Assembly (NCBI GenBank): GCA_963797305.1
Contig: CAWCOW010000003.1
Coordinates: 856,043-920,042 of the forward strand
Length of the DNA stretch: 64,000 nt
Reading direction: 5' to 3'
Source: an uncultured Alphaproteobacteria bacterium
GTDB taxonomy: Bacteria > Pseudomonadota > Alphaproteobacteria > Acetobacterales > Acetobacteraceae
Part shown: piece by piece, positions 19,166 through 35,743 of the stretch
Layout of the letters: every line of letters starts with the position of its first letter
Numbering within the stretch: the first letter of the stretch is position 1
The notes under the pieces: generated by a model
Told to the model about the DNA's origin: nothing
What the model saw: the letters and a program-made list of their open reading frames with translations, nothing else
The model's database searches: none
Position numbers and translations under genes: made by a program

Positions 19166-19185
19166 TACCGAACCCTTCGTGCCCA

Positions 19186-19273: not shown

Positions 19274-19600
19274 TCATACCAGACCGAGAAAGACCGCCAG
19301 TGCGCGGCTGACCTCCAACAGGCCAGCGTTGTCCAGCCGCCCGATAGCCGGTCCGACCTTGGTCCGGCGGACTGTCTGCGGCCGGTCGACCGCAATCTGG
19401 GATGGCGCGCGCAAACCGTTTTCCGCGCCTGGAGCCACATCGATCCGGGCCACCGCCGCCGCCTGCAACGTGCTTGTCAAAGGCAGGACGACAACGGTCG
19501 ACAAGGCATCGAACCAGTCCGCCTGAACGACGACTGCCGGGCGCGGCTTGCCGCTGTCCCCCTGTAGGGCAACGACAACGATATCGCCGCGGCGGATCAG
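19274..19600 (-). CDS. mazF: PemK/MazF family toxin (apparent CTG start)
   Basis: Manual translation: (M)IRRGDIVVVALQGDSGKPRPAVVVQADWFDALSTVVVLPLTS..NGLRAPSQIAVD.PQTVRR.KVG..IGRL. An in-frame TGA lies two codons upstream of the CTG. Confidence 0.88.
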   Translation of the reverse strand: MIRRGDIVVVALQGDSGKPRPAVVVQADWFDALSTVVVLPLTSTLQAAAVARIDVAPGAENGLRAPSQIAVDRPQTVRRTKVGPAIGRLDNAGLLEVSRALAVFLGLV

Positions 19601-19827
19601 CCGAGGTCATCCCAGGCATCGGCGGTGGCGCGCTCCCAGAATATTGTTTCCGCGCGGCCGGCCTCGGTATTGTCGGCCGCTGCGATCGAAAGGCACTGGC
19701 GGCGGCATTCCTCGGCGAACCCGGCCGCACGGGTGTCGCGCACCCATATCTGGACAGGACGGAGGCCGGCGACACGCATCTTGTCACGACGGCGTTTGAC
19801 CCGCTCGGCACTGGTTAAACTTCGCAT
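19597..19827 (-). CDS. DUF3018 / MazE-like antitoxin
   Basis: MRSLTSAERVKRRRDKMRVAGLRPVQIWVRDTRAAGFAEECRRQC; its stop overlaps the toxin start. Confidence 0.88.
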   Translation of the reverse strand: MRSLTSAERVKRRRDKMRVAGLRPVQIWVRDTRAAGFAEECRRQCLSIAAADNTEAGRAETIFWERATADAWDDLG

Positions 19828-19951
19828 ACCGCTACATGTAGCGCACGCATCGCGCTCGGGCAAGTCCAAAAGCAGTTCCCGGCCGCCGCCGGTTCGCTTG
19901 ACCCCTATCGCCCGCGCCGCTTTCCTTCCGGCCCGAACCGAGGAGCCCGCC

Positions 19952-20665
19952 ATGCCCGTCAAACAGCCCGTGGCCATCGTTTTCGACACCTTCGGCACTG
20001 TTGTCGATTGGCGGACCAGCCTGATCGCCGATCTGACCGCATATGGCGACGGACGCGGGGTCGCCGCCGACTGGCCGAAGCTGGTCGATGCCTGGCGTGC
20101 GGCCTATCACCCCTCCATGGACCGGGTCCGCAAGGGCGAGCGGCCGTGGACCACGCTTGACGCGCTGCATCGCGGGTCGCTCGATCTGCTGGTGACCGAG
20201 TTCGGCATCACCGGCCTGTCCGAAGCGGATCTGCAATACCTCAACCGCGGCTGGCACCGGCTGCATCCCTGGCCGGACGCGGTGCCCGGTCTAACCCGGC
20301 TGAAGTCTCGCTTCATCATCGGGCCGCTGTCGAACGGCAACGTCTCGCTGCTGCTGAACATGGCGAAGTTCGCCGGCATCCCGTGGGACATGATCTTCGG
20401 CTCCGACCTGTTCGGGCACTTCAAGCCCGATCCGGAGACCTATCTGGGCGTTGCCCGGTTGCTGGACCTGCGGCCGGACCAGGTGATGATGGCGGCGGCG
20501 CATAACGGCGACCTCGCCGCGGCGCGCGGCTGCGGGCTGCTGACCGCTTTTTTCCCGCGTCCAACGGAGTATGGCCCGCTGCAGACGCGGGATTATGCGG
20601 CCGAGCAGGACTGGGATGTCGTCGCCGCCGACATCGAGGACCTCGCCGCGAAATTCGGTCTCTGA
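19952..20665 (+). CDS. Haloacid dehalogenase type II family HAD hydrolase
   Basis: [45 protein letters not shown]. Confidence 0.9.
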
Positions 20666-20732
20666 CCCGGGTTGTTTTCCGGCGGCGCCAAACGCACGTG
20701 ATTGCGTCCAACGGGGAGAAGGAACTCGGCTC

Positions 20733-21905
20733 ATGGATGAGGTCGTCATCGTCTCGGCGGCACGCACGCCCGTCGGCAGCTTCAACGGCGCGCTGAGCAG
20801 CGTTCATGCGCACGAACTTGGTGCCACGGCGTTGCAGGCCGCCATCTCCCGGGCAGGTCTTGAGCCCGGCGATGTCGACGAAGTGATCTACGGCCAGGTG
20901 CTTGCCGCCGGCGAAGGCCAGAACCCGACGCGCCAGGCGGCCCGCATCGCCGGGCTGCCGGATCAGAAGACCGCCTTCGGCATCAACCAGGTCTGCGGGT
21001 CCGGCCTGCGCTCCGTCGCGTTGGCCGCACAGCAGGTCCGCACCGGCGAAAGCGCTATCGTCGCCGCGGGCGGCATGGAGAGCATGAGCCTGGCGCCGCA
21101 TGCCGCGCATCTGCGCAACGGCACCAAGATGGGCGGGCTGGAGTTCGTCGACACCATGCTGAAGGACGGGCTGTGGGACGCCTTCCACGGCTATCACATG
21201 GGCAACACCGCCGAAAACGTCGCCGCCAAATACCAGATCGGCCGGGAGCAGCAGGATGCGTTCGCGCTGGCGTCGCAGCAGAAGGCCTCCGCCGCGCAGA
21301 AATCCGGCCGCTTCAAGGACGAGATCGTCCCGGTGACGGTGAAGACCCGCAAGGGCGAGACCAGCGTGGTGGATGACGAGTACATACGGCACGATTCCTC
21401 CGCCGAGGGCATGGCGCGGCTGCGGCCGGCGTTCAGCAAGGATGGTACGGTGACCGCGGGCAACGCCTCCGGGATCAATGACGGTGCCGCGGCGCTGATT
21501 GTGATGTCCGCGGCTGAGGCGGCCAGGCGCGGCCTGACCCCGCTGGCGCGCATCGCCGGATTCGCGACCGCCGGTGTCGATCCGGCGGTGATGGGCACCG
21601 GGCCGATACCGGCGTCCCGCAAGGTGTTGGAGCGGGTTAGGTGGAAGCCGGACGACCTGGATCTGGTCGAGGCGAACGAGGCGTTCGCGGCTCAGGCGCT
21701 GGCGGTGAACAAGGACCTCGGCTGGGACACCGGCCGCGTGAACGTCAATGGCGGAGCGATCGCCATCGGCCATCCCATCGGCGCCTCGGGCGCTCGCATT
21801 CTCGTGACATTGTTGCATGAGATGGTAAAGCGCGACGCGCGGAAGGGGTTGGCGACGCTGTGCATCGGCGGCGGCATGGGTGTGGCGATGTGCCTGGAGC
21901 GCTGA
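20733..21905 (+). CDS. phaA: Acetyl-CoA C-acetyltransferase (beta-ketothiolase)
   Basis: [59 protein letters not shown]; upstream of phaB. Confidence 0.96.
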
Positions 21906-22047
21906 CCCCCCGGCTTTGGCCCATGACAGAACGTCCATACGAAGCGGTCGCCAACAAATCCGGTTGCCGAAGCGTTTCCACCCTTTGCGATTGTCCCGAA
22001 AGTGCTAAGAAAGCATCGGTTCTAGGAAACAAACTGGGAGGGACCTT

Positions 22048-22770
22048 ATGGCACGCGTCGCATTGGTAACCGGCGGCACTCGCGGAATCGGCTTGGCAAT
22101 CAGCCTGGCCCTGAAGGAACAAGGCCGAACGGTCATTGCCAACTATGCGAGCAATGACGAGGCCGCGGCGGCGTTCAAGGCCGAGCACGGCATCGACGTG
22201 GCGAAATTCAACGTTGCCAACTTCGAGGATACCGAGGCCGGCATCGCCAAGGTGGTGGAACAGTACGGCAAGATCGAGATCCTGGTGAACAACGCGGGCA
22301 TCACCCGCGACGGCACCCTGGTGAAGATGCGCCGCGACATGTGGGATGCGGTCATCGATACGAATCTCGGGTCCTGCTTCAACACCTGCAAGCTGACGTT
22401 CGAGGGCATGCGGGACGCGAAGTTTGGCCGCGTGGTGAACATCGGCAGCCTGAACGGACAGGCCGGGCAGTACGGCCAGGTCAACTACGCCGCCGCCAAG
22501 TCCGGCATCCACGGCTTCACCAAGGCGTTGGCATTGGAAGGCGCGCGATGGGGCATCACCGTCAACGCGCTCGCCCCGGGGTATGTTGATACCGAAATGG
22601 TGCGGGCGGTTCCGGCCGAAGTCCTGAAGAAGATCGTTGCGAAGATCCCGGTTGGCCGCATCGGCCATGCCGAGGACATTGCCCGCGGCGTGGCGTTCCT
22701 GACTTCTGAAGAGGCCGGGTTCATTACTGGATCGACGATTTCGATCAACGGCGGCATGTTCATGTACTAA
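22048..22770 (+). CDS. phaB: Acetoacetyl-CoA reductase
   Basis: VALVTGGTRGIG, NNAGITRD, GQAGQYGQVNYAAAKSG, PGYVDTEMV, KIPVGR, INGGMFMY. Confidence 0.96.
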   Translation: MARVALVTGGTRGIGLAISLALKEQGRTVIANYASNDEAAAAFKAEHGIDVAKFNVANFEDTEAGIAKVVEQYGKIEILVNNAGITRDGTLVKMRRDMWDAVIDTNLGSCFNTCKLTFEGMRDAKFGRVVNIGSLNGQAGQYGQVNYAAAKSGIHGFTKALALEGARWGITVNALAPGYVDTEMVRAVPAEVLKKIVAKIPVGRIGHAEDIARGVAFLTSEEAGFITGSTISINGGMFMY

Positions 22771-24719: not shown

Positions 24720-26081
24720 ATGAGGCCGGCCGTGACTGCTTCGGGTCGTCTGCTTCTGGCAATCAGCCTGGCCGTTGGTTTCGGCACCGGTACGCCTTCG
24801 GCTTACGCCACTGTGGCCGATCAACCGCCCGGAACGATCGCCGGGATAGTTGCGCATGTGCGGGATTCGGTCATGCGGATCGTGGTCGTGCATCCGCCCG
24901 AGACCGCGGACGACACCGGCCAAAACAAGGCTCAGGCCGGCGACTCGCACCCGGTCACGCGGATCGGCTCCGGCTTCGTCATCGACCCGAGCGGACTGGT
25001 GGCGACCAACCGCCATGTCGTGGAAAACACGCTGGCAATTTTCGTCGGGACACCCGACGGCGGACGCTACCGGGCGGAAGTCGTCGGCATGCCCGCCAAG
25101 GCGGACATCGCGCTGCTGCGCATCGTCCATCCGCCCGCGCACCTGACCGCGGTGAAATTCGGCGACAGCGACAAAATCCGGCCGGGGGACACGGTGATCG
25201 CCATCGGCAGTCCGTTCGGGTTCGATAACACTGTCACAGCGGGCATCGTCAGCAGCGTCAATCGCGACATCATGGAAAGCCCGTTCGACGACTATATCCA
25301 GACCGACGCCGCAATCAATCACGGCAATTCCGGCGGTCCGCTGTTCAACATGGCCGGCGAAGTTGTAGGCATGACCAGCGTTTTATATGCGCCTGGCAAT
25401 TACTCGGGTTCGGTCGGGCTTGGGTTCGCAATTCCATCCAACGACCTGCGCTTTGTATTTTCGCGGTTGGAACAATACGGCGAGGTGCGCGCCGGGATGC
25501 TGCCGCTGCGGACGCAGCAGGTCACCGAATTCATGGCGCAGGCGATCGGGTCGCCGGACGCGGGCGGGGCGCTGATCGCGGCGCTGGGTTCGAGGGCGGA
25601 TGAAATGAACCATCAGATCGAACCGGGCGATATCGTGCGGACGTTCAACGGACAACCGGTGATCGACCCGCGCGATCTGGCGCGCAAGGCGGCGCGGGCG
25701 GAAATCGGCAGCATGGCGACGCTGGGGATTTGCCGCAGCGGCACGATCATGTCGGTGCAGGTGCCGATTTTGCCGTTCGAGCACGGGCCGCAAAGTCACG
25801 ACGTTCTTCCCGGGCCGCCCCCGAAAACCCTGGGTCTGCAGCTTGCCGCCGCGCCCGGCGGCGTCACGGTGTCCGCGGTCGATCCGTCCGGAAGCGTAGC
25901 GGACAGCGGCTTGCAGCCCGGGGACGTCATTCTGCGCGTGCAACAGCAGCGCGTTCGCACGCCGCAGGAAGCGGAGGCGGCGCTGAAGGCGCGCGAGGCG
26001 GCGAAGCAGCCATACGCTGCGATTTTGGTAGAGAGGGACGACAAGCCGAGCTGGATTCCCATAGCGTTGCCGGGCGAATAG
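24720..26081 (+). CDS. DegP/DegQ-type trypsin-like serine protease with PDZ domains
   Basis: Signal peptide, GSGFVID, TNRHVV (His), DIALL (Asp), IQTDAAINHGNSGGPL (Ser), two PDZ-like regions. Confidence 0.93.
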   Translation: MRPAVTASGRLLLAISLAVGFGTGTPSAYATVADQPPGTIAGIVAHVRDSVMRIVVVHPPETADDTGQNKAQAGDSHPVTRIGSGFVIDPSGLVATNRHVVENTLAIFVGTPDGGRYRAEVVGMPAKADIALLRIVHPPAHLTAVKFGDSDKIRPGDTVIAIGSPFGFDNTVTAGIVSSVNRDIMESPFDDYIQTDAAINHGNSGGPLFNMAGEVVGMTSVLYAPGNYSGSVGLGFAIPSNDLRFVFSRLEQYGEVRAGMLPLRTQQVTEFMAQAIGSPDAGGALIAALGSRADEMNHQIEPGDIVRTFNGQPVIDPRDLARKAARAEIGSMATLGICRSGTIMSVQVPILPFEHGPQSHDVLPGPPPKTLGLQLAAAPGGVTVSAVDPSGSVADSGLQPGDVILRVQQQRVRTPQEAEAALKAREAAKQPYAAILVERDDKPSWIPIALPGE

Positions 26082-26338
26082 GCGTGGCGGCTGTCATTCC
26101 CTGTAAACAACGGGTATGTTGCCCACCGACGCGGCACCTTTTCGGCCACGAGAAGTTGATCGAAGTTTGTTAGCGATAGCAGGCTGGTTTTCGTCCCGCG
26201 CCCTTGCGACGACTGAGCGTGGCGGCGGAGCATCTGGACAGCCGTCGCGGGGTAAGCATAGACTTGACCCAACGGTGATAGAATGAAAAGCGCGCAGGGA
26301 CGGGCTAACCTGCGCGGTTGGCGAGGAAAACCAGGATA

Positions 26339-26917
26339 ATGAGTGTCAGCGATGCGCACGAAATCGGAGTTTGCCGCCGCCGCGCCCTGTTAGGGGCTGG
26401 ACTGGCTTTGGCGCCCCTGGCGTTGTCGGCCGCGCGGGCGGACGATGCGGCTTCGGAAATGCCGCCGCAGCCGGGCGATCAGCTTGTGTTTTTGACAGGG
26501 CCCAAGACCGGCCAACCTATTCACGTCGAGGATTTGCCGAAAGGCGGCCCACAGGTGCAGGCTTATCCGAGAGCCCCGGATGGCACGGTGCGTGATGGCA
26601 CGCGGCTAAATCTGGTGATCGTGGCTCGCATCGGCGACGAAGGTGTCGATGAAGTGACGCTCGGGCGCATGGCGGATGGTGTCGTGGCCTATTCGGGTGT
26701 CTGCACCCATCAGGCCTGTCCGGTAAACATGTGGTCGGACGCCAATCGCACGTTCGTTTGTTCCTGCCACGGATCGGTGTACGACCCGCGCAACGATGCC
26801 GAGGTACTGGACGGGCCGGCGCCGCATCACCTGGCGGGCCTGCCGTTAAAGACCGAGAATGGCGTGCTGATTGTCGCCGGTGGATTTACCGGGCGCGTCG
26901 GTATGCAAACGACTTGA
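26339..26917 (+). CDS. Tat-exported Rieske [2Fe-2S] protein
   Basis: RRRALL..ARA Tat-type signal, boxes CTHQAC and CSCHGSVY, GPAP motif; about 100 bp upstream of a PQQ dehydrogenase. Confidence 0.9.
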   Translation: MSVSDAHEIGVCRRRALLGAGLALAPLALSAARADDAASEMPPQPGDQLVFLTGPKTGQPIHVEDLPKGGPQVQAYPRAPDGTVRDGTRLNLVIVARIGDEGVDEVTLGRMADGVVAYSGVCTHQACPVNMWSDANRTFVCSCHGSVYDPRNDAEVLDGPAPHHLAGLPLKTENGVLIVAGGFTGRVGMQTT

Positions 26918-27013
26918 TGCGCACAGCAACCGCTGACGGGACCGCGCGGCCCGGCCGCATCATGGCAAGTAAAGCGCGAACGCGTTGACCTGAACGACTT
27001 CAAGGGGGAAATA

Positions 27014-28735
27014 ATGAAGAAGCTACTGGTTGGCTCAAGTCTGGCGGTGCTGATGATGGCGGGCATTCCGGGCGTGGCCCGCAGCGCCGACTACTCACCG
27101 GTTACCGATGCGCGCCTGCAAAATCCCGAGCCGCAGAACTGGCTGATGACACGCGGCAATTACCAGGGCTGGAGCTACAGCCCGCTCGAACAGATCAACG
27201 CCAGCAACGTCAAAAAGCTCACCCCCGTCTGGGCTGTTTCGACAGGCGTCGATTCCGGCCACGAATCGCCGCCAATCGTTAACAACGGGATGATGTTCGT
27301 GGCGACGCCGTATAGTCAGGTGTTGGCGCTGGATGCGGCGTCAGGGACCTTGCTGTGGCGTTACAAGCGCCGGCTGCCGGAGGGCTTCAGCGCCCTGCAT
27401 AACACCAGCCGCGGCGTGGCGCTGTATGGCGACAAGGTGTTCATGCCGACGCTGGACGCTGTCCTGGTGGCGTTGGACGCCAAGACTGGCAAGGTCGCGT
27501 GGGAAGCCAAGGTCGAGGACTGGAAGACCGGCTATTACATGACCATGGCTCCGCTTATCGTAAAGGGTAAAGTCCTGGTCGGCGTCGCGGGCGGAGAGTT
27601 CGGGGTGCGCGGGTTCATCGAGGCGTTCGATGCCGACACGGGAAAGCCGGCCTGGAAGACCTATACCATTCCGGCGCCCGGCGAGCCCGGCAGCGACACT
27701 TGGCAGAAGCCCGATACCTGGAAGACCGGCGGTGCTTCTACCTGGATGACAGGCAATTACGATCCGGCTACGAATGTGGTGTATTGGGGCACCGGAAACG
27801 GTTCGCCGTGGTTCGGCGATCAGCGGCCGGGCGACAATCTTTACACATCCTCAACGCTCGCGCTGGATGGCGATACCGGCAAGATCAAGGGGCATTTCCA
27901 GTATCACCAGAACAAGTCGTGGGACTGGGACGCGATGAACGCGCCGATGCTGGTGGATTTCCAGCGCAATGGCAAAACGACAAAAGGCCTGCTGACGCCG
28001 CAGCGCAACGGTTATCTGTATTGGCTGGGGCGCGAACCTGACGGCGGCATCTCGTACCTGAACTCCATCGCGTACGTTCCGCAGAACGTTTTCAAAGGCA
28101 TCGATCCGGAAACCGGACGGCCGGATGTGGACCTGGCGCACAAGCCGGGGACCGGCAAGGCCGCGCAGTTCTGTCCCGGGCTTTGGGGTGGCAAGGACTG
28201 GCCGTTCGAGGCTTACAATCCGAAGACCGGCATCGTCTATATCCCATCGAACGAAAACCACTGCAACACGCTGGAAGGAAAGGTCGAGCAACGCGTGCCC
28301 GGCCAATGGTGGACCGGCGTTGCGGTGCCAGACCTGCATTTCTCGGTCGATACGAAGGCGCCTTTCTACGGCGAGCTTCAAGCCTATGACGTCAACACCG
28401 GCAAGCGCGCGTGGCGGGACACCTACAAGGATTCCATGATGTGGGGTTCGGTGCTGACCACGGCGGGCGACCTGGTATTTGCCGGCGGCACCAACGATCG
28501 GGACTTCCGCGCCTATAATGCGAAAAGCGGCGAGGAACTCTGGAAGTTCAGGACCAACTCCGGGGTGATCGCGCCGCCGTCGACGTTCGAAGTCAACGGC
28601 ACACAATATATCGCGGTGGCCTCCGGCTACGGCGTCGATCCGGCGTTCCAGCAGGGGCTGATGGCCAATCTGGTGGGCTGGAATGCCGACGTGCCACAGG
28701 GTGGCGTGATCTGGGTGTTCGCTCTTTCGAAGTGA
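27014..28735 (+). CDS. PQQ-dependent alcohol dehydrogenase family protein 1 (no vicinal disulfide, D-x-D motif)
   Basis: Signal peptide, NWLMTRGNYQGWSYSPLEQIN, ESPPIV, GGEFGVRG, GGASTW, GTGNGSPW, WDWD, CPG..GGKDW, W-repeat propeller; no haem c domain. Confidence 0.92.
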   Translation: MKKLLVGSSLAVLMMAGIPGVARSADYSPVTDARLQNPEPQNWLMTRGNYQGWSYSPLEQINASNVKKLTPVWAVSTGVDSGHESPPIVNNGMMFVATPYSQVLALDAASGTLLWRYKRRLPEGFSALHNTSRGVALYGDKVFMPTLDAVLVALDAKTGKVAWEAKVEDWKTGYYMTMAPLIVKGKVLVGVAGGEFGVRGFIEAFDADTGKPAWKTYTIPAPGEPGSDTWQKPDTWKTGGASTWMTGNYDPATNVVYWGTGNGSPWFGDQRPGDNLYTSSTLALDGDTGKIKGHFQYHQNKSWDWDAMNAPMLVDFQRNGKTTKGLLTPQRNGYLYWLGREPDGGISYLNSIAYVPQNVFKGIDPETGRPDVDLAHKPGTGKAAQFCPGLWGGKDWPFEAYNPKTGIVYIPSNENHCNTLEGKVEQRVPGQWWTGVAVPDLHFSVDTKAPFYGELQAYDVNTGKRAWRDTYKDSMMWGSVLTTAGDLVFAGGTNDRDFRAYNAKSGEELWKFRTNSGVIAPPSTFEVNGTQYIAVASGYGVDPAFQQGLMANLVGWNADVPQGGVIWVFALSK

Positions 28736-28794
28736 TCCGAGTGCGGGCCGGCCGCCAGAAATGGCGTCTGGCCCATCGGCTTTAGGATATGTCC

Positions 28795-29232
28795 ATGAAA
28801 ACTGTATATGCACTGTCCCGGCGTTTCGCCCTTGCGCTGACGGTCGCGGGTCTGACTGTATCGGCCGCGGGTAGCGTGGCGGCCGGCGAACCTGACGCCT
28901 ACGATGTCAATGTGAGCGACGTCACCGCCAAAGTCGGAGAGCCCGCTGTAATGCTCGCGACCTTGAAGGTCCGCGATGGCTATCGGATTTTGACGGCCTA
29001 CAACAACCGGGTCATCAAACTGTCTTCGTGGGATGACGGCGTCGTCTTCGAACAGGACATGGTGCCGGCGAAGGTTGAAGATGGTGCCTTGGTTTTCAAG
29101 GTTGGCCTGAAAGCGACCAAGCCCGGCACCCACCCGATCAACGGGCTGCTGCGTGTCGGTTATATCCAGGGCACCGACGAAATGGCTATGGTGTCAATGA
29201 AGCTGATCGCCAACGTTACGGGAACCGAGTAA
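28795..29232 (+). CDS. Exported hypothetical protein, beta-rich (DsbD-N/Ig-like appearance)
   Basis: AGGA RBS, signal peptide (FALALTVAGLTVSAAGSVAA), alternating hydrophobic beta pattern, no Cys. Start is 28789 or 28795. Confidence 0.65.
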   Translation: MKTVYALSRRFALALTVAGLTVSAAGSVAAGEPDAYDVNVSDVTAKVGEPAVMLATLKVRDGYRILTAYNNRVIKLSSWDDGVVFEQDMVPAKVEDGALVFKVGLKATKPGTHPINGLLRVGYIQGTDEMAMVSMKLIANVTGTE

Positions 29233-29247
29233 CGTCTCACCGTGCGC

Positions 29248-29853
29248 CTACCCGGCTTTCAGGATCGTTAGCTGGGTGGCATTGGTGAAGTCGCGCAAAT
29301 CCTTCGACGGATCGCGGTACAGTTGACGATCGAGCAAAAACCGCCGCGATTCCGTCACCTTCTCACAATGCTCATGCACGAACACTCCGCCAACCGGCTG
29401 TTCAGTCGCAGTCGGTTCGATTGTATGGCAGCGCCAGCCATCTTCGCCGAACCGCGCCTTTGCCTGGATGGCGAACAGGAAAGCCTTCTTGTGCTGATAC
29501 AGCCTGACATGCGGATCTGTTTCGATCCGTAGCCCGGCGACCTGTGCCGCATCATCGATCAGCAACGCCAGGGTTACCGGCTGCCCACCCACAACCGTTT
29601 CGCCCTCATCGTAACGGAAGCTGATGGCGTGATAACCGTCCGAAGACGGCGCGCAAGCATTGTAATCCTGCCAATTCGTCAGCTTCCGCGCGGGATCGTT
29701 GGCGCATGCAAATTCGCCGTATCCGCTTTGCGGCAGCGCAGAAACCGGCATGCCGACGCGGAACTCGCGCAGATCGTTCTGCTGCGAGGGCGCCGCCGCC
29801 GCACATAGCGGCAGCAGCATCGCGGCTGTCATCACGGAACGGGATATCGTCAC
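29248..29853 (-). CDS. Exported hypothetical protein with four Cys
   Basis: GTG start after GGAAGG, signal peptide, DLREFRVGM, FAC..C..FRYD, WRC..HEHC; follows the cytochrome c gene by 4 bp. Confidence 0.7.
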   Translation of the reverse strand: MTISRSVMTAAMLLPLCAAAAPSQQNDLREFRVGMPVSALPQSGYGEFACANDPARKLTNWQDYNACAPSSDGYHAISFRYDEGETVVGGQPVTLALLIDDAAQVAGLRIETDPHVRLYQHKKAFLFAIQAKARFGEDGWRCHTIEPTATEQPVGGVFVHEHCEKVTESRRFLLDRQLYRDPSKDLRDFTNATQLTILKAG

Positions 29854-29857
29854 GAGG

Positions 29858-30457
29858 TTACCTTCCTGCATCCTGATGCGGTGCATTGGAATCGGTCGCC
29901 GCGTCGACCTTCATGTGTTCATGCGCCGGGGCTTGGTCTTGCTCCGCGGCCGCGTGCTGAATTCCGCCTTCATCCTTGGCATACATGTCACAGACGCGGC
30001 TGCCGGTGCCGAAGAACGACCGGCATTGATCGATTGTTGCCTCGCCCTGACCCTTGATGTGTTCCACCACATATTTGGCGACCGCATCGATATCCGCCGG
30101 GCGCAGCGGGTGATCGGCTGCGGGCGGGATCTGGCCCGGCCCGAGCTGGGCCGCTTTCATTCCGTAGCATCGGCCATCGGAATACGCATCGGTATCGAAA
30201 TGCGGCATCCCTTTCGAGATGCGTCCGCATTTGATCGTCAGTTCGATCTGATCAAGCGACAGCTTTGTCTTTCGCAGATTCGCCGCGGCACCGCCATAGC
30301 CGCCGCCACCGGTGCCGGTCCATTTATGGCAGCCGACGCAATTAGCGGCCTTGAATACCCGCAGCCCCTCGTCGGAGGAATCGGCCAGGGCGAAACCTGA
30401 ACCGGCAATCATCGCCGCGAAAACCGCGGCCGGAATGAGATAAAATCCCTTGATCAC
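29858..30457 (-). CDS. Periplasmic monohaem cytochrome c
   Basis: Signal peptide, ANCVGCHKW (CxxCH), GMPHF (axial Met candidate), four extra Cys. Confidence 0.9.
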   Translation of the reverse strand: MIKGFYLIPAAVFAAMIAGSGFALADSSDEGLRVFKAANCVGCHKWTGTGGGGYGGAAANLRKTKLSLDQIELTIKCGRISKGMPHFDTDAYSDGRCYGMKAAQLGPGQIPPAADHPLRPADIDAVAKYVVEHIKGQGEATIDQCRSFFGTGSRVCDMYAKDEGGIQHAAAEQDQAPAHEHMKVDAATDSNAPHQDAGR

Positions 30458-30524
30458 AGCATGCGACTTTCTGGTTCTGAACAGTGGCCGGGGCGGGTCG
30501 GCGGCCCGCGCCCGGTTCCTGTCA

Positions 30525-32285
30525 TCAGTTCAACGAGAAGACATACAAAGCTGAACTCGGATGTATCGCCTTGAGTTCCGGCGTCCCCTCGATAAACCAT
30601 TTGTCCCAGGCGCCGCCTTGGCCGACCAGTATCGCGATATACTGCTTGCCGTCGGACGTGAACGTCATGGGGGGCGCGTTCACTCCGCCGCCAGTGTTGA
30701 AGCTCCAAAGTTCCTGCAGATTTTTCGCGTCCAGGGCTGCAACCTTGCCGTCCGGCTGGCCATAGAATACGAGGTCCGGTGTGGTCAGCAGGCCGCCAAG
30801 CATCGGAAACGGCGTTTCATGCTTGCCGACTTCCTTACCGGTGGTCACGTCGATCGCGGTCACACTGCCGGTTATGCGTTCAGGCTGATCCGGTCCGCCA
30901 CCAGTGAAGAACTCCCGCTTCGCGACCGGCTTGCCGGGTGTCTCCGGTTTGACGGTAATGCGGTTGCAACTTTCAATAACCGGAATGTACCATTCCTTCA
31001 GCACCGGATTATAGGCGGTCGGCGGCCAGTTCTTGCCGCCCATGTTGCCCGGACAGATGATCGTTACCGGGTTTTCTTTGCTGGGTGTGACCGAGGCATT
31101 GTACTTCTGAACATCCGCCTTCGGATCATACTCAACCGGCTTGCCGGTTTCCTGATCCAAACCCTTCGTCCAGGTCACTTTCTTTACGAACGGCAGACCC
31201 CAAACGAACTGGCCGTTATCCCGATCCAGCGCATAGGCAAAACCGTTGCGATCAGCTTCCAGATCGAGGTGCCGAGGCTGTCCGTGGACGGGCGCGTCGG
31301 CCAGCACGTTCTCCGAGACACTGTCATAGTCGAACGCGTCGTTCGGAGTATGCTGGAAGTGCCACTTGATCTTTCCGGAATCAGCATCGAGGGCCAAAGT
31401 GCTGTCCGTATACAGGTCGTCGCCGGGACGATACGCCGAATCCCAGTCCGGCCCGGGATTGCCAACGCCCCAGTACAGCGTATTCGTCCGCGGATCGTAA
31501 CTGCCGGTCACCCATGTCGATCCGCCACCGGTAGCCGCCGCGTTATGGCTGTCCTTCCAGGTCTCGCTGCCAGGCTCGCCCTTCGCCGGAATCGTGTAAG
31601 TGCGCCAGACTTCCTTCTGCGTCCCGATATCGGTCGCCGCGATCCATCCGCGAATGCCATACTCCGCCCCGGCCACACCCGTAATGACCAAGTTCTTCAC
31701 CACCAATGGCGCGCCGGTAATCACTTCGCTCTTGTCTGGATCGGCCACTTGCCGCTGCCATGCGATCTGACCAGTCTTCTTGTTGGTGGCGATCAACCGC
31801 CCGTCCAGCGAATGCGACAGGACAAGATCGCCGGACAATGCCACGCCGCGGTTGTCCACGCCGCAACAGGCAACAGCCCCGGCCCAATCGTGGTCCGTCT
31901 TCGGATCCATGCGCCACAGCACTTTAGCCTGGCCGCCTTTCGTATCGATTTTGTAAACAGACCCCCAACCGTCCGTCACATACATGAACCCGTCCTGCAC
32001 GATCGGCGTGCCTTCCAGGCCACCATGCGACCAGATCCCCCCGCCCTCGATCCCGCCCAGTTGAAGCGTCCAGGCAACGTGCAGGTTCTTGACGTTATCC
32101 TTGTTGATCTGGTTCAGCGGCGAGAACCGTTGCGCCGAGTAATCCTTATGGTGCGTCAGCCAATTACCCGGATCCGAGTCAGCCTTCAGAAGTTGGTCGG
32201 ACGTCACCTCGTCGGCCGCAAAAACCGCTGTCTGGCTCCCGAGGATCAATGCGACGATCGCCGCGGCGCATTTTGTTTTTTTCAT
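30525..32285 (-). CDS. PQQ-dependent alcohol dehydrogenase family protein 2 (vicinal CC, DYD motif)
   Basis: Signal peptide, NWLTHHKDYSAQRFSPLNQIN, ACCGVDNRG, GAEYGIRG, GGGSTW, GVGNPGP, PNDAFDYD, CPGNMGGKNW. Confidence 0.93.
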   Translation of the reverse strand: MKKTKCAAAIVALILGSQTAVFAADEVTSDQLLKADSDPGNWLTHHKDYSAQRFSPLNQINKDNVKNLHVAWTLQLGGIEGGGIWSHGGLEGTPIVQDGFMYVTDGWGSVYKIDTKGGQAKVLWRMDPKTDHDWAGAVACCGVDNRGVALSGDLVLSHSLDGRLIATNKKTGQIAWQRQVADPDKSEVITGAPLVVKNLVITGVAGAEYGIRGWIAATDIGTQKEVWRTYTIPAKGEPGSETWKDSHNAAATGGGSTWVTGSYDPRTNTLYWGVGNPGPDWDSAYRPGDDLYTDSTLALDADSGKIKWHFQHTPNDAFDYDSVSENVLADAPVHGQPRHLDLEADRNGFAYALDRDNGQFVWGLPFVKKVTWTKGLDQETGKPVEYDPKADVQKYNASVTPSKENPVTIICPGNMGGKNWPPTAYNPVLKEWYIPVIESCNRITVKPETPGKPVAKREFFTGGGPDQPERITGSVTAIDVTTGKEVGKHETPFPMLGGLLTTPDLVFYGQPDGKVAALDAKNLQELWSFNTGGGVNAPPMTFTSDGKQYIAILVGQGGAWDKWFIEGTPELKAIHPSSALYVFSLN

Positions 32286-32313
32286 TCTGTTTCTTCCCTT
32301 GGGTGGTTCGGCG

Positions 32314-32556
32314 CTACTTGCCGTTAGCCTCGACCTTCGACTTTTCGCTGTTGTTCATGGCTTTGACGGTCTTGCTTTGATCGGTTTCCCCCGTCGTCCG
32401 CGTAGTCGTTGCAGGCGGTGCCGAAGACGGCACCGACTTTTCCATTGCCGGACCATTGCCGATGTGCGCCTTGGCCGGCGGCGGGATGTCGTCAGCCAGG
32501 GCAGCCCCGCCCCAAACGAGCAGGGCTGCACCGGCGGTCAGTAATAAATGTCTCAA
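32314..32556 (-). CDS. Small exported low-complexity protein
   Basis: TTG start after AAGGAGAG; signal peptide [18 protein letters not shown], then a Pro/Thr/Lys-rich tail; lies between iorB-like and PQQ DH2. Confidence 0.6.
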
Positions 32557-32570
32557 ACAGCTCTCCTTGT

Positions 32571-34856
32571 TCAGGCGTTTTCCAACTGCTTGCCGATAGG
32601 CAGGCTGCGGATGCGCTTGCCGGTGGCCGCGAAGATCGCATTGCAAAGCGCCGGAGCGAACGGCGGCACGCCCGGTTCGCCAACCCCGCTCGGAGGTGTC
32701 TCCGGTCCAGGCGGCATAATGTAGACGTTCGTCACCACCGGTCCCTCGTCGATGCGGGCGACTTTGAAGTCGTCGAAGTTCTTCTGCTGCACGCGTCCGT
32801 TCTTGAAGGTGATTTCTCCATATTTGGCCAGGCTGAGGCCCATGATCGCGGCCCCTTCGATCTGCGACTGAATCCGCTCCGGGTTCACGTAGGTACCGCA
32901 ATCGATGGCGGTATCGACACGCGGAATGGTTAGTTTACCCTTGTCGTCCACCGCTACTTCCACGATCGTTGCAACATAGCTGACAAAGCTGCGGTGCGCC
33001 GCGATGCCTAGCCCGTGACCTTTCGGCAACGAACGTCCCCACTGGCCCTTCTGCGCCACCAGTTCGACGACCTTGCGAAGCCGCCCGGCATCGATCGGAT
33101 AGCTGCTGATGGGCTCGCCATAATCCCAAAGGTCCTTTACGGATGGACCGACATTAACAATCCGCGCAGGGCCGATCAGTTCCAGCAGCATGTCCTTGGG
33201 ATCGCGTCCGGTCTCGTGGGCAAGCTCGGCAACCATCGTTTGCACGGCGAAGGCGTGGGGAATATTCGACACCGATCGGAACCAGCCAATGCGGGTGTAG
33301 GCGGCGGCTTCCGGGTTTTCGCAGCGAATGTTGGGGATGTCGAACGGCACATCGACCAACCCCATGCCGAGCTCGAACGGCGCCTGATGCTTGGCGCCGG
33401 CAGCAAACGTCGACATGATTGTCGGCGCCACGCTGCGATGCCGCCAGGCGATCACCTTGCCGCCCTTGTCCAATCCGGCCTCGATCCGTTCGGCGGACAC
33501 CGTGTGAAGGAAGTCGTGCTGGATATCATCCTCACGGGTCCACTGCACTTTCACCGGCGCGCCGACGGCCTTGGACAGCAGCGCCGCTTCCAACGCGAAG
33601 TCGCATTTCGACTTGCGGCCGAAACCGCCGCCCAGCAACGTCACGTTGACCGTAACATTTTCCGGAGAAATGCCCAGCGTTTTGGCGACATCATCGCGGG
33701 TCCCTTGCGGACTTTGCACCGGGGCCCAAACCACCGCCTTGCCGTCCGAGACATGCGCGGTGGCGACGGGACTTTCCATGGCGGCGTGGGCGAAATGCGG
33801 CGCGTAATACTCCCCGACGACAACCTTGTCCGCTGATTTCATTGCAGCGTCCACATCGCCGTTGTTCCGAACTACCTCACCCGGCTGGCGCGACGCGTCC
33901 TCTAGTTCCTTGCGGTAGGCTACGGAATCGTAGGAGGCGTTGGGGCCGTCATCCCACACCACTTTCAGCGCGTCGCGACCTTTGATCGCGGCACCGGTGT
34001 TGCGGGCGATGACGGCGACACCGCCGAGCGGCTGGAACTTCGAGGGCCAGGGCCAGCCCTGCACCTCGATCACCTGCTCCACACCGGACACCTTCAGGGC
34101 ATCGGAAGCATCGAACGAAACCAGTTTGCCGCCGGTGACGGGGGGGCGGGCGATGACGGCGTATTTCATCCCCGGTAGCCTGGTGTCGATGCCGTACATT
34201 GCCTTCCCAACGGTGATGTCGTGAAGATCGACGATGCTTATACGACCCTTGCCGATATACCGGTAATCCTTGGGATCCTTCAGCTTCAGCTTCGACGCGT
34301 CCGCGACCGGTTGATCCGCGGCATCTTCCGCCAGTTCGCCATATCCCAGCTTCTGATTCGTGCCGACACGGATGACTTCATGGTTCACCGCCCTTACTTG
34401 ACTAACTGGAACATTCCACCGCTTGGCGGCGGCGGCTTCCAGCATCATGCGAGCGGAGGCGCCGACCTGCCGCATCGGAATCAGGAAGTGGCGGGTGCTG
34501 CGGGACCCGTCGGTGTCCTGGTTGCCGTATTTCGCCTCGTCGCCCGGCGCCTGTTGGACCCTGACCTTGTTCCAGTCCGCTTCCATTTCATCCGCAACGA
34601 CCATCGGCAGGCTGGTGCGCACGCCGGTCCCCATCTCCGACCGCGATGCGATGATGGTGACGATGCCATCCGGAGCGATGGAAACGAACACCTTCGGATC
34701 GTTGACCGTGCCATGCGGCATCTTGTCCGCGCCGGTCGAATAGGCCGCCATGGAGCGCCGCGTGCTCACCGGAACGGCAAGCACCAGACCGGCGGTGACG
34801 CCCAATCCGCGCAGGACACCGCGTCGGGAAACGTTCTCTATACGATTCTGGAACAT
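32571..34856 (-). CDS. Xanthine dehydrogenase-family molybdopterin subunit (IorB-like)
   Basis: SRRGVLRG Tat-like N-terminus, [76 protein letters not shown]. Confidence 0.95.
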
Positions 34857-34859
34857 GAC

Positions 34860-35312
34860 TCAGGCCCCCGTCGATGCAAGCCGCACAGCCGTTTCGATCC
34901 GCGCATAACAGCCGCACCGACAGATGTTGCCGGCCATGGATTCGCGGATGTCGTCGTGCGACGGATGAGGGTTGTGGGAGATGAGAGAGGCCGCCTGCAT
35001 GATCTGCCCGGACTGACAGTATCCGCATTGCGGCACGTTGACTTCTCGCCAGGCTTTCTGCACCGGATGATTGCCGGCAGGATCCAGGCCCTCAATCGTC
35101 GTGACCCTCTTGCCCGATGCTTGCAGCAACGTCGTGCTGCAGGAGCGCACGGCGATGCCCTCCAGATGCACCGTGCAGGCGCCACAGAAGCCATGGCCGC
35201 AGCCGAACTTGGTGCCGGTCAGGCCGGCCTCATCGCGAAGATACCACAACAGAGGCAGCGACGGATCGCCGTCCCACGTGTGTTCCTGCCCGTTGACTGT
35301 CAGTGTTATCAT
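34860..35312 (-). CDS. (2Fe-2S) small subunit (IorA-like)
   Basis: LLWYLRD..GLTGTKFGCGHGFCGACTV, QCGYCQSGQIM, GNICRCGCY. Confidence 0.95.
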   Translation of the reverse strand: MITLTVNGQEHTWDGDPSLPLLWYLRDEAGLTGTKFGCGHGFCGACTVHLEGIAVRSCSTTLLQASGKRVTTIEGLDPAGNHPVQKAWREVNVPQCGYCQSGQIMQAASLISHNPHPSHDDIRESMAGNICRCGCYARIETAVRLASTGA

Positions 35313-35743
35313 TGGTCGTGTTTTCCCTTGCTTTAGTTCTGATTGGATGGGTGCCATGTTGCACCGCAATATCAGGCCATCGATCGTTGTTCATTTGGAT
35401 TGGAATTGCGTGGTGCGAAACCAGCGCTCACCTCTGGCCAACAATTTCACATTGTTCGACACCTTGACCGTTCCCCCAATCCGGATCTTCTTCTTGTGCT
35501 TGTTCGGACATTCGAGCCTAGGAGATGACGCCGCGGCTGACTACCGCCTTCACGCGGTTTTGCGTCTGGATCGCCTACACGCCGCCCACGTTGGACGGAA
35601 CTTCATTGCCTACGCCGGCTGAATGCCGATGCGATGACCAAGCAAAATCGAAAATCACCGCGCTTACTTATCAACCCGTGACGGGCACAACACTTTTCGC
35701 CATGCCCGATCGCGAATTTGATGCGACCGGGCGCGCGTGATCC

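Follow-up and report, generated by a model that had tools for sequence, protein, structure and literature searches.

Conserved pairing of a Tat-type Rieske protein with a soluble PQQ dehydrogenase suggests a candidate route of electron transfer

In the 64,000-nucleotide stretch of DNA analysed here (the window), a gene for a Rieske [2Fe-2S] protein lies beside one for a soluble PQQ-dependent dehydrogenase, and this pairing is conserved beyond chance. Together the two genes constitute a conserved periplasmic redox module, probably transcribed as a single operon, and we propose from gene context and sequence that the Rieske protein acts within this module as the dedicated one-electron acceptor of the PQQ enzyme (a probability of roughly 0.6). 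The more general claim—that a widespread clade of soluble PQQ alcohol dehydrogenases (PQQ-ADHs), with predicted lanthanide and calcium members, uses a dedicated Tat-exported soluble Rieske protein rather than a haem protein as its physiological acceptor—we hold a little less firmly, while still favouring it. The electron acceptors known to us for PQQ dehydrogenases are c-type cytochromes, whether separate or fused, along with ubiquinone and a cupredoxin. We found no description of a PQQ-dehydrogenase/Rieske pairing in the searchable literature, in keeping with its presentation as new in a first-pass annotation of this DNA; all of the sequence features named there were present in the translations, each in its expected place (Table 1).

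Table 1. Features of the Rieske/PQQ-dehydrogenase locus and its surroundings, in window coordinates
Feature	Position	Strand	Remarks
Rieske [2Fe-2S] protein gene	26339..26917	+	192 aa from ATG 26339; in-frame TTG at 26318
Predicted twin-arginine (Tat) signal peptide of Rieske protein	26339..26440	+	MSVSDAHEIGVCRRRALLGAGLALAPLALSAARA; predicted cleavage before DD
Rieske box I, CTHQAC	26702..26719	+	cluster ligands Cys122, His124; disulfide Cys127
Rieske box II, CSCHGSVY	26759..26782	+	cluster ligands Cys141, His144; disulfide Cys143
PQQ-dependent dehydrogenase, methanol/ethanol family, His-type	27014..28735	+	573 aa
Sec-type signal peptide of PQQ enzyme	27014..27085	+	MKKLLVGSSLAVLMMAGIPGVARS; read from sequence; low pLDDT segment
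ALHNTSRG, Leu128-His129 replacing vicinal Cys-Cys	27392..27415	+	aligned to Cys-Cys of PedH and of the second PQQ-ADH in the window
Glu195 (GGEFG), metal ligand of PQQ enzyme	27596..27598	+	alignment to PedH
Asn262 (GTGNG), metal ligand of PQQ enzyme	27797..27799	+	alignment to PedH
K301-S-W-D304-W-D306 of PQQ enzyme	27914..27931	+	catalytic Asp304, lanthanide-type Asp306, minority Lys301
p147, secreted Ig-like beta-sandwich accessory protein	28789..29232	+	no known family; database gene call from 28795
p212, secreted, by second PQQ-ADH	29248-29886	-	whole context block 29248..32285
Monohaem cytochrome c gene of second PQQ-ADH	29858-30457	-	1.1 kb away
Second PQQ-ADH, canonical Cys-Cys, DYD-type	30525-32285	-	Pfam/NCBIfam; internal control
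Periplasmic (Tat-signal) molybdopterin aldehyde-oxidoreductase-like large subunit	32571-34856	-	Pfam MoCoBD_1/2
2Fe-2S small subunit of molybdopterin oxidoreductase	34860-35369	-	Pfam Fer2_2

That the Rieske gene and a dehydrogenase lacking the vicinal Cys-Cys pair might be conserved neighbours, a point that the first-pass annotation had proposed to check, was borne out by co-occurrence analysis in both directions. Among the 80 best-scoring of at least 582 enzyme relatives from a genome scan (57–92% identity, fetched by clade-specific peptide patterns, such that the statistics are valid only at 57% identity or above), 77 carried an adjacent, co-directional Rieske homologue. At the level of phylum or class these paired loci spanned no fewer than six groups (Alpha-, Beta-, and Gammaproteobacteria, Rokubacteria/Methylomirabilota, Acidobacteria, and Entotheonella), and they were arranged either as Rieske followed by dehydrogenase (67 loci) or as dehydrogenase, p147, and Rieske (10 loci). 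Two of the three unpaired loci are readily explained, one by an IS transposase upstream (L029) and one by its position at a contig edge (L039), leaving L049 as a genuine solo dehydrogenase gene. Soil and freshwater Proteobacteria were among the sources of the 80 best relatives, and Bradyrhizobium, Acetobacteraceae, and uncultured soil lineages commonly carry the module.

For the reverse comparison, a metagenome scan was seeded with the Rieske alignment, yielding 80 loci of which 70 were informative and 10 uninformative. Nearly all informative loci (67 of 70) carried the dehydrogenase or the accessory gene p147; the dehydrogenase itself was visible in 53, and in the other 14 p147 stood beside the Rieske gene with no visible dehydrogenase, mostly because of contig ends (one locus, L130, was rearranged). 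Three loci of the Rieske subfamily had no enzyme (L143, L153, and L154), the first of these lying near the gene for a 7-haem cytochrome. Pairwise identities of the two proteins were correlated (r = 0.87 across 74 loci), indicating co-diversification, and the 96 nt separating the two genes contained no terminator-like site. In rhizosphere and soil metatranscriptomes, contigs (which may contain DNA) covered the whole trio of genes at a Bradyrhizobium-type locus and ran across the junction from p147 to the Rieske gene.

The Rieske open reading frame, preceded by a plausible ribosome-binding site (GAGGA, ~10 nt upstream of 26339), translates to a protein containing CRRRALLGAGLALAPLALSAARADD, CTHQAC, and CSCHGSVYD. 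It matches Pfam PF00355 (E 4e-9), its top match among solved structures is 1NYK, the Rieske protein of Thermus thermophilus (E 5e-34), and its database homologues, of 187–200 aa, are labelled ‘Rieske Fe-S protein’. Its description as a Tat-exported, cleavable protein of the high-potential type is supported by the expected marks in the sequence, namely the twin-arginine signal, the AxA site, and the cluster boxes. A signal pattern of two arginines, 13–20 hydrophobic residues, and a small-x-small site recurred in at least 67 of 73 homologues, and these signal peptides combine an AxA cleavage motif with Pro/Gly-rich h-regions, unlike a membrane-anchor helix. The ligand and disulfide residues (C122, H124, C127, C141, C143, and H144) were invariant in the homologue alignment. 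Ser146 and Tyr148 of box II occupy the positions of the bc1 hydrogen-bond donors, and published work describes how Ser/Tyr donors after this box (CPCHGS.Y) affect the potential. In many relatives Ala or Phe stands here instead, and variants of the box include CSCHASIFD, CNCHGSTFD, and CPCHESEFD.

Affiliation with a known Rieske family was less clear-cut. Scores against the bc1 and b6f NCBIfam models fell far under the cut-offs, the best match being the bc1 QcrA model, and the score for the arsenite oxidase small subunit AioB (TIGR02694) was 49 bits against a cut-off of 95.65. The window protein resembles the Thermus bc-complex Rieske protein about as closely as it does the Rieske partner of a more distant PQQ enzyme, P0126, and so is not set sharply apart as a ‘PQQ-only’ family. 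Neither a cytochrome b nor a c1 gene was found among the open reading frames scanned from 13.6 to 42.4 kb or among conserved neighbours. To this extent the earlier remark on missing cytochrome genes stands; it had, however, overlooked the monohaem cytochrome c gene nearby, which belongs to the second PQQ-ADH.

The dehydrogenase, whose gene is preceded by a plausible ribosome-binding site (AAGGGGGA, before 27014), matches Pfam PF01011 (E 1e-79) and is placed in the methanol/ethanol family by its NCBIfam TIGR03075 score (578.9 bits, cut-off 480.05). Its match to PedH (6ZCV) is strong (E 2e-111) at an identity of only ~38%, and the PedH segments RPCCDVINRG, GGEFG, GTGNP, and GWDFD align with SALHN-TSRG, GGEFG, GTGNG, and SWDWD in the window enzyme, which has no CxxCH motif. 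An AlphaFold model (pTM 0.83; TM-score 0.83 to PedH) reproduced the eight-bladed beta-propeller fold, with TM-scores of 0.79–0.84 to structures of PedH, XoxF, ExaA, and MxaF. Residues E195, N262, and D304 were kept in nearly every complete sequence from the 80 loci; R133 and W244 were invariant and R331 and W477 kept in nearly all, these four (the Arg following the Cys-Cys site, the stacking Trp, the Arg of RNG, and a C-terminal-side Trp, respectively) being residues that we take to be PQQ contacts by analogy with methanol dehydrogenase numbering. The enzyme fell below the cut-off of the ‘Acido-empty-quinoprotein’ group A of PQQ-less propellers (TIGR04528; 388.9 bits versus 650) and far below that of the membrane glucose/quinate dehydrogenases (TIGR03074; 195.8 versus 832.65 bits), and it has no N-terminal transmembrane region. 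With its ligands conserved, its model superposing on PedH, and its score under the empty-quinoprotein cut-off, the enzyme looks functional. Its signal peptide lacks a twin arginine, and it is therefore probably exported separately from the Rieske protein.

Two features of the active site stand out. First, the vicinal Cys-Cys is indeed absent: Leu128-His129 takes its place, every one of the 80 loci has a residue pair ending in His at this site, as do 116 of the 120 closest homologues, and His129 (ALHNTSRG) aligns with His-262 (FQHVTCRG) of Gcd, the membrane glucose dehydrogenase of E. coli. Second, the window enzyme has the lanthanide-type Asp at +2 (WDWD), as had been noted; of the 80 loci, 65 share this motif and 15 have the Ca-type WDWA. 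The WDWA loci retain the Rieske gene, and the partnership is thus independent of metal type. We predict that the window enzyme uses a lanthanide and the Ca-type subclade calcium. The Lys preceding WDWD, which had been singled out as unusual, proved to be a minority variant (3 of the 120 closest homologues, most having Glu or Asp).

The suggestion that disulfide loss is tied to use of a Rieske protein was not supported by comparison with more distant relatives. Loss does not define the partnership: a Tat-Rieske gene lies 39 nt upstream of the one for P0126, which has the Cys-Cys (VVCCDVVNRG), and two sampled, more distant His-type lineages have cytochrome c partners (P0122, with the partner fused to the enzyme in P0121, and P0134).

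Unbiased clustering of all neighbouring open reading frames revealed no conserved cytochrome c gene in the neighbourhoods of the 80 loci; the only widely shared clusters were the dehydrogenase (80 loci), the Rieske protein (77), and the molybdopterin (35) and 2Fe-2S (34) subunits of an oxidoreductase. The second PQQ-ADH of the window serves as an internal control, as a cytochrome c gene adjoins its close homologue in all five loci having one, with p212 in four of these (L001, L002, L053, and L056). Among sampled Cys-Cys relatives, P0136 and P0139 likewise have a cytochrome c gene alongside. The slot upstream of the enzyme is filled, in the nearest sister lineage, by a cytochrome-c-domain protein, which in P0121 is fused to the dehydrogenase; this fits a position that holds an electron carrier.

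The accessory protein p147, encoded directly 3′ of the dehydrogenase in 52 of the 80 loci, had no Pfam or NCBIfam match; every one of its 480 homologues is named ‘hypothetical’, and its model has a confident core with generic fold matches only. As a third conserved small secreted protein it could be a structural subunit, and this, along with tight synteny, short intergenic gaps, co-diversification of the two proteins, and the natural fusion of the equivalent cytochrome c partner in P0121, would suit a reading that we consider unlikely but not far-fetched: that the Rieske protein is a permanent subunit, bound stably to the dehydrogenase as a heterodimer (perhaps along with p147), and that the complex reduces an external cytochrome or cupredoxin. 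The Rieske protein would then act much as AioB does in arsenite oxidase, or as the fused cytochrome c domain does in type II quinohaemoprotein ADHs. Yet the export signals of the two proteins differ (Tat versus Sec), and any complex must therefore assemble in the periplasm; moreover, no Rieske–dehydrogenase fusion occurred among the proteins examined, and the variable gene order, with the Rieske gene 3′ of p147 in some loci, also speaks against it.

Enzymes expected to oxidise aldehydes are encoded close to many of these pairs, which fits with a working alcohol dehydrogenase. Homologues (at least 50% identity) of the window's Mo/2Fe-2S genes occur in 35 of the 80 loci, while the Ca-type subclade has an AldA-type NAD-dependent dehydrogenase in this role; LutAB genes near these latter loci hint at a route from 1,2-propanediol via lactaldehyde to lactate. 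It is very unlikely, in our estimation, that the Rieske protein serves the Mo/2Fe-2S aldehyde oxidoreductase, or both dehydrogenases, with the PQQ enzyme using a cytochrome c encoded elsewhere. The Mo/2Fe-2S genes do lie near the pair without a gene for a cytochrome subunit, and the window has a cytochrome c gene close by; but the Rieske gene is far more widely retained than the Mo enzyme, abuts the PQQ gene or p147 rather than the Mo genes where both are present, and is kept in the Ca-type subclade, where the AldA-type enzyme is presumably cytoplasmic and needs no periplasmic carrier, whereas the cytochrome c accompanies the second, Cys-Cys PQQ-ADH. Least probable of all is that the pairing is without direct redox significance, with the Rieske protein an alternative, condition-specific bc-type subunit co-regulated with alcohol oxidation, or the PQQ-like protein a propeller that is cofactor-less or not a dehydrogenase: the nearest solved relative (the Thermus bc-complex subunit), the QcrA match, and the empty-quinoprotein match point this way, but the Rieske signals do not resemble a membrane anchor, cytochrome b genes are missing from the scanned region and conserved neighbours, the enzyme exceeds the TIGR03075 cut-off and not that of TIGR04528 with all metal and PQQ ligands kept, and the aldehyde-oxidising neighbours suit an active enzyme.

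Under the acceptor mechanism that we favour, the [2Fe-2S] cluster would be inserted in the cytoplasm and the folded Rieske protein exported by Tat, with cleavage after ARA releasing a soluble protein of ~158 aa. The dehydrogenase would be exported by Sec and take up PQQ and metal in the periplasm—a lanthanide, via Asp306, in the window copy and most relatives, and calcium in the Ala subclade—with PQQ stacked between Trp244 and His129, the His standing where the Cys-Cys ring would be, like His-262 of membrane glucose dehydrogenase. Oxidation of an alcohol to its aldehyde would leave PQQH2 to be re-oxidised by the Rieske cluster in two one-electron steps, the Rieske protein thereby filling the role that cytochrome cL, c550, or XoxG has for canonical enzymes; its potential, estimated from its motifs and studies of bc1 mutants, is predicted at ~+150 to +300 mV. 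Judging from gene context, the aldehyde may be oxidised further by a neighbouring enzyme, either the periplasmic Mo/2Fe-2S oxidoreductase (the window and other loci encoding it) or the AldA-type enzyme (the Ca-type subclade), and the reduced Rieske protein would pass its electron to an acceptor encoded outside this region, for example an oxidase, cupredoxin, or c-type cytochrome.

If true, this would be the first quinoprotein-to-Rieske respiratory branch: an iron-sulfur acceptor would connect the oxidation of alcohols in the periplasm to the respiratory chain in a new way, and soluble ‘orphan’ Rieske proteins would gain a defined job. Since His-type and Cys-Cys enzymes both appear to be Rieske-paired, the pairing would also inform the long debate over what the vicinal disulfide does, and the Asp and Ala sister subclades, sharing the same partner, offer a natural comparison of lanthanide and calcium enzymes on one scaffold. 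Given its frequency in soil lineages and its presence in metatranscriptomes of the rhizosphere, the module may be relevant to how soils turn over volatile alcohols and diols, and to the way in which lanthanide availability shapes this process.

Several known systems share parts of the proposed arrangement. The lanthanide-type enzymes PedH, ExaF, and XoxF resemble the window enzyme in TIGR03075 membership, Glu/Asn/Asp ligands, +2 Asp, Sec signal, and soluble periplasmic character, with PedH the closest solved structure by both sequence and fold; the window enzyme differs in having Leu-His for Cys-Cys and an adjacent Tat-Rieske gene where theirs is a cytochrome c, and its clade also holds Ca-type (Ala) members with the same partner. 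The type II alcohol dehydrogenases ADH IIB and IIG (1KV9 and 1YIQ), the next-best PDB sequence matches after two PedH entries, are soluble periplasmic PQQ-ADHs with a dedicated one-electron relay attached; theirs is a fused C-terminal cytochrome c domain, in a Cys-Cys enzyme, whereas the relay candidate here, a Rieske protein, is separate. The inducers of ADH IIG include 1,2-propanediol, which gene context hints at as a substrate of the Ca-type enzymes. Membrane glucose dehydrogenase (mGDH/Gcd, TIGR03074) has the H-x-T-x-R-G motif in common with the window enzyme and, as in the system proposed here, is a PQQ enzyme with an acceptor other than cytochrome c, in its case ubiquinone; the window enzyme, by contrast, is a soluble methanol/ethanol-family propeller with no N-terminal membrane anchor.

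On the Rieske side, the Thermus thermophilus protein (1NYK/3FOU), which we take to be a subunit of a menaquinol-oxidising bc complex, aligns over residues 48–198, including the N-terminal subdomain, and has the boxes CTHxGC...CxCHG.VYD in common with the window protein. The latter differs in its cleavable-looking Tat signal, in the Ser of CSCHGS (Gly in Thermus), and in being encoded with a PQQ enzyme rather than cytochrome b. Arsenite oxidase (AioAB) is among the systems in which a Tat-exported Rieske subunit relays electrons to soluble cytochrome c or azurin. In AioAB, as in the window, a bc1-like Rieske protein with a Tat signal is encoded beside a periplasmic dehydrogenase with no cytochrome b, and AioB chains are among the PDB matches of the window protein (E 1e-8 to 1e-5). 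The window protein carries the Thermus-type N-terminal subdomain, unlike AioB, and its catalytic partner, a PQQ propeller, has a Sec signal of its own and so does not hitch-hike on Tat as in AioAB; AioAB nonetheless sets a precedent, in that a Rieske cluster there forms the exit relay from a periplasmic oxidoreductase.

Taken as a conserved module, the tandem Rieske and PQQ dehydrogenase genes represent a well-supported finding: a type I PQQ-ADH lineage with a His like that of membrane glucose dehydrogenase and with a dedicated Rieske partner. As an electron-transfer route, the module is a candidate put forward on sequence grounds. A full-text literature search returned no paper that connects Rieske proteins to PQQ dehydrogenases; the co-mentions that we traced concerned other matters (reference lists, Bathyarchaeia, and bc1 in Acetobacteraceae), and recent surveys of lanthanide PQQ enzymes mention neither Rieske proteins nor the disulfide. 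In databases the proteins bear generic names ('alcohol dehydrogenase (cytochrome c)', 'Rieske Fe-S protein', and 'hypothetical protein'). The clade may figure in the PQQ-ADH type classification of Keltjens et al. 2014.

Coordinates of the features discussed (window positions, except for the fetched comparison loci, numbered L)
Feature	Position	Strand	Remarks
Rieske protein gene	26339-26917	+	ATG start to stop, 192 aa
PQQ dehydrogenase gene	27014-28735	+	573 aa, Sec-type signal
p147	28789-29232	+	secreted, no family; directly 3' of PQQ dehydrogenase gene
Secreted 212-aa protein	29248-29886	-	no family match; in module of second PQQ-ADH
Monohaem cytochrome c	29858-30457	-	in module of second PQQ-ADH
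Second, canonical PQQ-ADH	30525-32285	-	ACCGVDNRG, DAFDYD
Tat-signal molybdopterin large subunit + 2Fe-2S small subunit	32571-35369	-	resembles IorAB / aldehyde oxidoreductase type
Ca-type subclade loci	L054-L077		e.g. L064 3868-9710 and 12396-15360

Against TIGR03075, the model of the PQQ methanol/ethanol dehydrogenase family, the PQQ dehydrogenase scored 578.9 bits, above the curated cut-off of 480, and it has no haem motif. Among solved structures it is closest to the lanthanide enzyme PedH (E 2e-111), to which a single-chain AlphaFold model (pTM 0.83) compares with a TM-score of 0.83. Alignment with PedH bore out the motifs described in the first-pass annotation: GGEFG, GTGNG, and the catalytic Asp are retained, the Asp two residues further on is present (SWDWD vs GWDFD in PedH), and the vicinal Cys-Cys is missing, with ALHN-TSRG lying under PCCDVINRG. 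The Lys that had also been stressed as unusual does not typify the group, occurring in 3 of the 120 closest database homologues, where Glu or Asp is usual. Among these homologues (69-100% identity), 116 carry (S/A/G)ALHNT(S/N/T) at the Cys-Cys position and nearly all have WDWD. The closest relatives in the database belong to Rhodopila and other Acetobacteraceae. On alignment, the replacement for the disulfide is a specific His: His129 of the window enzyme (ALHNTSRG) matches His-262 of the E. coli membrane glucose dehydrogenase (FQHVTCRG), which in that enzyme, a ubiquinone reducer, reportedly stands where the disulfide ring would be. Enzymes with x-His at this position are here called His-type. 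The 982-aa homologue P0097 was considered as a possible Rieske fusion and rejected, as it shows no additional domain and its length probably reflects an over-extended ORF.

The Rieske protein matched PF00355, and the features recognised at first pass are present: the boxes CTHQAC and CSCHGSVYD, and a twin-arginine leader, CRRRALLGAGLALAPLALSAARA, followed by DD. The leader pattern—RR, a Pro/Gly-rich h-region, and small-x-small—recurs in at least 67 of 73 homologues. An in-frame TTG stands at 26318, ahead of the ATG at 26339. Shine-Dalgarno-like sequences precede both genes of the pair, and no terminator-like site was seen in the 96-nt spacer between them.

For a forward test of the pairing, the clade alignment was scanned against one genome per species (185,579 species), giving at least 582 relatives of the PQQ enzyme, of which the best 80 (57-92% identity) were analysed using tblastn coordinates with the window proteins as queries. 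These loci came from Acetobacteraceae, Bradyrhizobium and other Hyphomicrobiales, Stellaceae, Geminicoccaceae, Skermanella, Hyphomicrobium, and Methyloligella, from Azoarcus, Zoogloea, other Burkholderiales, Xanthomonadales/Lysobacterales, and Nevskia, and from Rokubacteria/Methylomirabilota, Acidobacteria, and Candidatus Entotheonella. A Rieske homologue adjoins the PQQ enzyme in 77 of the 80, on the same strand every time—a figure that, like the other 80-locus figures, is valid for the 57-92% identity range only, because the loci were fetched with two clade-specific peptide patterns. The Rieske gene lies immediately upstream of the PQQ gene in 67 loci and after p147, a small secreted-protein gene, in 10 Bradyrhizobium-type loci. 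The exceptions are an IS transposase inserted upstream of the PQQ gene (L029), a contig that ends 455 nt upstream (L039), and one real solo PQQ gene (L049). Every one of the 80 has x-His at the disulfide position (ALHNT, VLHNT, ALH(V/M/R)T or QLHPT), and pairwise identities of the Rieske and PQQ proteins correlate (r = 0.87, 74 loci).

The reverse test started from the Rieske alignment: a metagenome scan with it yielded 80 loci, mostly on short contigs. A His-type dehydrogenase is adjacent in 53. A further 14 have p147 beside the Rieske gene and no visible dehydrogenase, mostly at a contig end, as the second gene order predicts; 10 are uninformative, and three (L143, L153, L154) are without a dehydrogenase. 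In L143 (123-2217), a seven-haem cytochrome c gene precedes the Rieske gene by about 1 kb, and neither p147 nor a PQQ dehydrogenase occurs in the 1.7 kb upstream; this neighbour could point to the downstream acceptor or could simply reflect rearrangement. L130 (550-3085), one of the 14 loci with p147 and no visible dehydrogenase, is rearranged, with a distant PQQ-like propeller (27% identity, SCCSFRG) and a 40-aa p147 remnant before the subfamily Rieske gene.

Label-free clustering of all neighbouring ORFs in the 80 genome loci recovered only four families of wide occurrence (the dehydrogenase, the Rieske protein, and two Mo-enzyme subunits), with no cytochrome c family among them. A coding-like CxxCH ORF was found within 3.5 kb in 4 of the 80, a lower bound, as the scan overlooked some known cytochrome c genes; in contrast, a cytochrome c gene sits beside the window's own Cys-Cys PQQ-ADH in all five loci with a close homologue. 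Three other readings bear on these neighbourhoods. The Rieske protein might serve the Mo enzyme, whose gene pair occurs in 35 of the 80 loci and is accompanied in the window by no FAD or cytochrome subunit gene. It might instead be an alternative bc-complex subunit: its closest solved relative is the respiratory Rieske protein of Thermus thermophilus (1NYK/3FOU; E 5e-34, whole soluble domain). No NCBIfam Rieske model was matched at cut-off (bc1 QcrA, 73 bits vs 275; AioB, 49 vs 95.65). Against the bc-complex reading, the first-pass statement that cytochrome b and c1 genes are absent nearby holds for the ORFs scanned, from 13.6 to 42.4 kb. Lastly, the propeller could be an empty one, in a protein that keeps its metal ligands and reached the cut-offs of neither the 'empty' quinoproteins nor the membrane glucose dehydrogenases. 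All three are less well supported than a partnership with the PQQ enzyme, because it is the PQQ gene with which the Rieske gene co-occurs, rather than the genes that these readings invoke.

The first-pass annotation had paired the Rieske protein with a disulfide-less, lanthanide-motif enzyme; in wider sampling, neither trait is tied to the partnership. A calcium-type Ala (SWDWA) replaces the lanthanide-type Asp in 15 of the best 80 loci (Azoarcus, Zoogloea, Hyphomicrobium, Methyloligella, Pseudoxanthomonas, Rhodanobacter, Dokdonella, Nevskia, Lysobacterales), and all 15 keep the Rieske gene; the partnership is therefore independent of the predicted metal. More distant lineages were sampled as the nearest 50%-identity cluster representatives, whose contigs were looked up. 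P0126, a Cys-Cys enzyme (VVCCDVVNRG, DLWDYD; 48% identity), has a Tat-Rieske gene 39 nt upstream (L169, 2820-5204), whose product (CTHLGC / CPCHEAAFD) is 37% identical to the window Rieske protein (E 7e-28), so the Rieske partnership reaches beyond the disulfide-less clade. Conversely, the His-type P0122 (QVHPT, 52% identity) is preceded by a gene for a secreted protein of 508 aa whose C-terminal domain is a monohaem cytochrome c, in P0121 that protein is fused to the dehydrogenase, and P0134 (VFHPN, 44% identity) has a cytochrome c next after the dehydrogenase. The Cys-Cys relatives P0136 and P0139 have adjacent cytochrome c genes, and P0129 and P0133 showed neither a Rieske nor a cytochrome c partner on the contigs examined. 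Disulfide loss thus neither requires a Rieske partner nor is required for one, and we rejected it as an explanation of the partner switch. In a rough neighbour-joining tree without bootstrap, the Rieske-linked His-type subclades cluster with the cytochrome-c-linked P0121/P0122 as sister; Cys-Cys lineages branch next, P0126 outermost. Judged from these sequences, partners were swapped during the evolution of the PQQ enzymes, which argues that the gene in the upstream position encodes an electron carrier of some kind, once fused to the enzyme (P0121). That natural fusion (L168, 112-3339), also considered as a Rieske fusion until the fused part proved to be cytochrome c instead, combines an SGL-like propeller, a monohaem cytochrome c, and a His-type dehydrogenase; in L164 (2404-5788) and L165, from samples whose names begin QH_Go, the parts are unfused and two neighbouring genes encode them.

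Conserved neighbours of the pair are aldehyde oxidisers, which fits an alcohol-to-aldehyde-to-acid route. In the window subclade this is the periplasmic Mo/2Fe-2S enzyme, and in the calcium-type subclade an AldA-type NAD aldehyde dehydrogenase (NF007497, 763 bits vs cut-off 500), encoded in an operon in which it follows genes for a sigma-54 activator, an outer-membrane channel, and a 159-aa membrane protein, in that order, and precedes first the Rieske and then the PQQ dehydrogenase gene. LutB is nearby in eight loci of the latter subclade (TIGR00273, 473 bits vs 445) and a LutA-like gene in six, which hints, for the calcium-type subclade and with modest strength, at conversion of 1,2-propanediol through lactaldehyde and lactate to pyruvate.

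The third gene, p147, is present in 52 of the 80 genome loci, there only beside x-L-H-N-T (ALHNT or VLHNT) dehydrogenases, and was not detected in calcium-type (WDWA) or QLHPT loci. Its product matched no Pfam or NCBIfam family, even at E 10; 480 database homologues, every one named 'hypothetical', are known, and the motif KPG.HP.NG..R is invariant. A confident single-chain model is a plain Ig-like sandwich, and a fold search gave only generic ones (sialidase linker domains, cohesins), which are not informative.

On the opposite strand, the canonical PQQ-ADH, likewise predicted to be lanthanide-type by its DAFDYD, forms a trio with the cytochrome c and the 212-aa protein, so that two PQQ-ADH modules with different partners lie back to back in the window. 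The trio was found again in L001, L002, L053, and L056. Third-position GC is 0.72-0.79 in genes of this alcohol-oxidation island (~26000-36000) vs 0.83-0.90 in most other window genes, and overall GC falls from about 0.66-0.69 to about 0.60-0.62. The island is possibly a horizontal acquisition. Just upstream, a polyhydroxybutyrate set at 16924-22770 (PhaR-like regulator, PhaC-like hydrolase-fold protein, thiolase, acetoacetyl-CoA reductase) looks like ordinary chromosomal context. Further along, an ORF of 536 aa (39529-41139, minus strand) has a coding-like codon composition and matched nothing in Pfam; genes for Zn-dependent alcohol dehydrogenases (37381-39467) and for a beta-eliminating lyase (41200-42432) are its neighbours.

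In a search for RNA evidence, the window sequence itself was matched in soil-metagenome DNA runs only. Rhizosphere and soil metatranscriptome contigs are 90-99% identical to a Bradyrhizobium-type locus (L018) and cover its dehydrogenase, p147, and Rieske genes, two of them (~640 nt) crossing the p147-to-Rieske junction; this suggests that the genes are transcribed in situ on one message, though metatranscriptome assemblies can contain DNA.

With a probability of roughly 0.6, the Rieske protein takes electrons from the PQQ enzyme and then reduces an acceptor encoded outside the locus. The Rieske protein would be exported by Tat and its signal cleaved, and the PQQ enzyme would leave by Sec and then be loaded with PQQ and metal. 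The enzyme would oxidise an alcohol, PQQH2 would give two single electrons to the Rieske cluster, and the reduced protein, either a diffusible carrier or a bound subunit, would pass them to an acceptor absent from the local gene set. The PQQ/PQQH2 potential lies near +90 mV, that of the Thermus Rieske protein near +140 mV, and those of bc1-type clusters with Ser/Tyr hydrogen bonds at +150 to +300 mV; transfer in this direction is thermodynamically plausible. Arsenite oxidase offers the nearest functional parallel for a Tat-Rieske relay serving a periplasmic dehydrogenase; the window system differs from it in family, by score (AioB, 49 vs 95.65), and in export logic: Tat hitch-hiking as in AioAB was considered and set aside, as the PQQ enzyme carries a Sec signal of its own.
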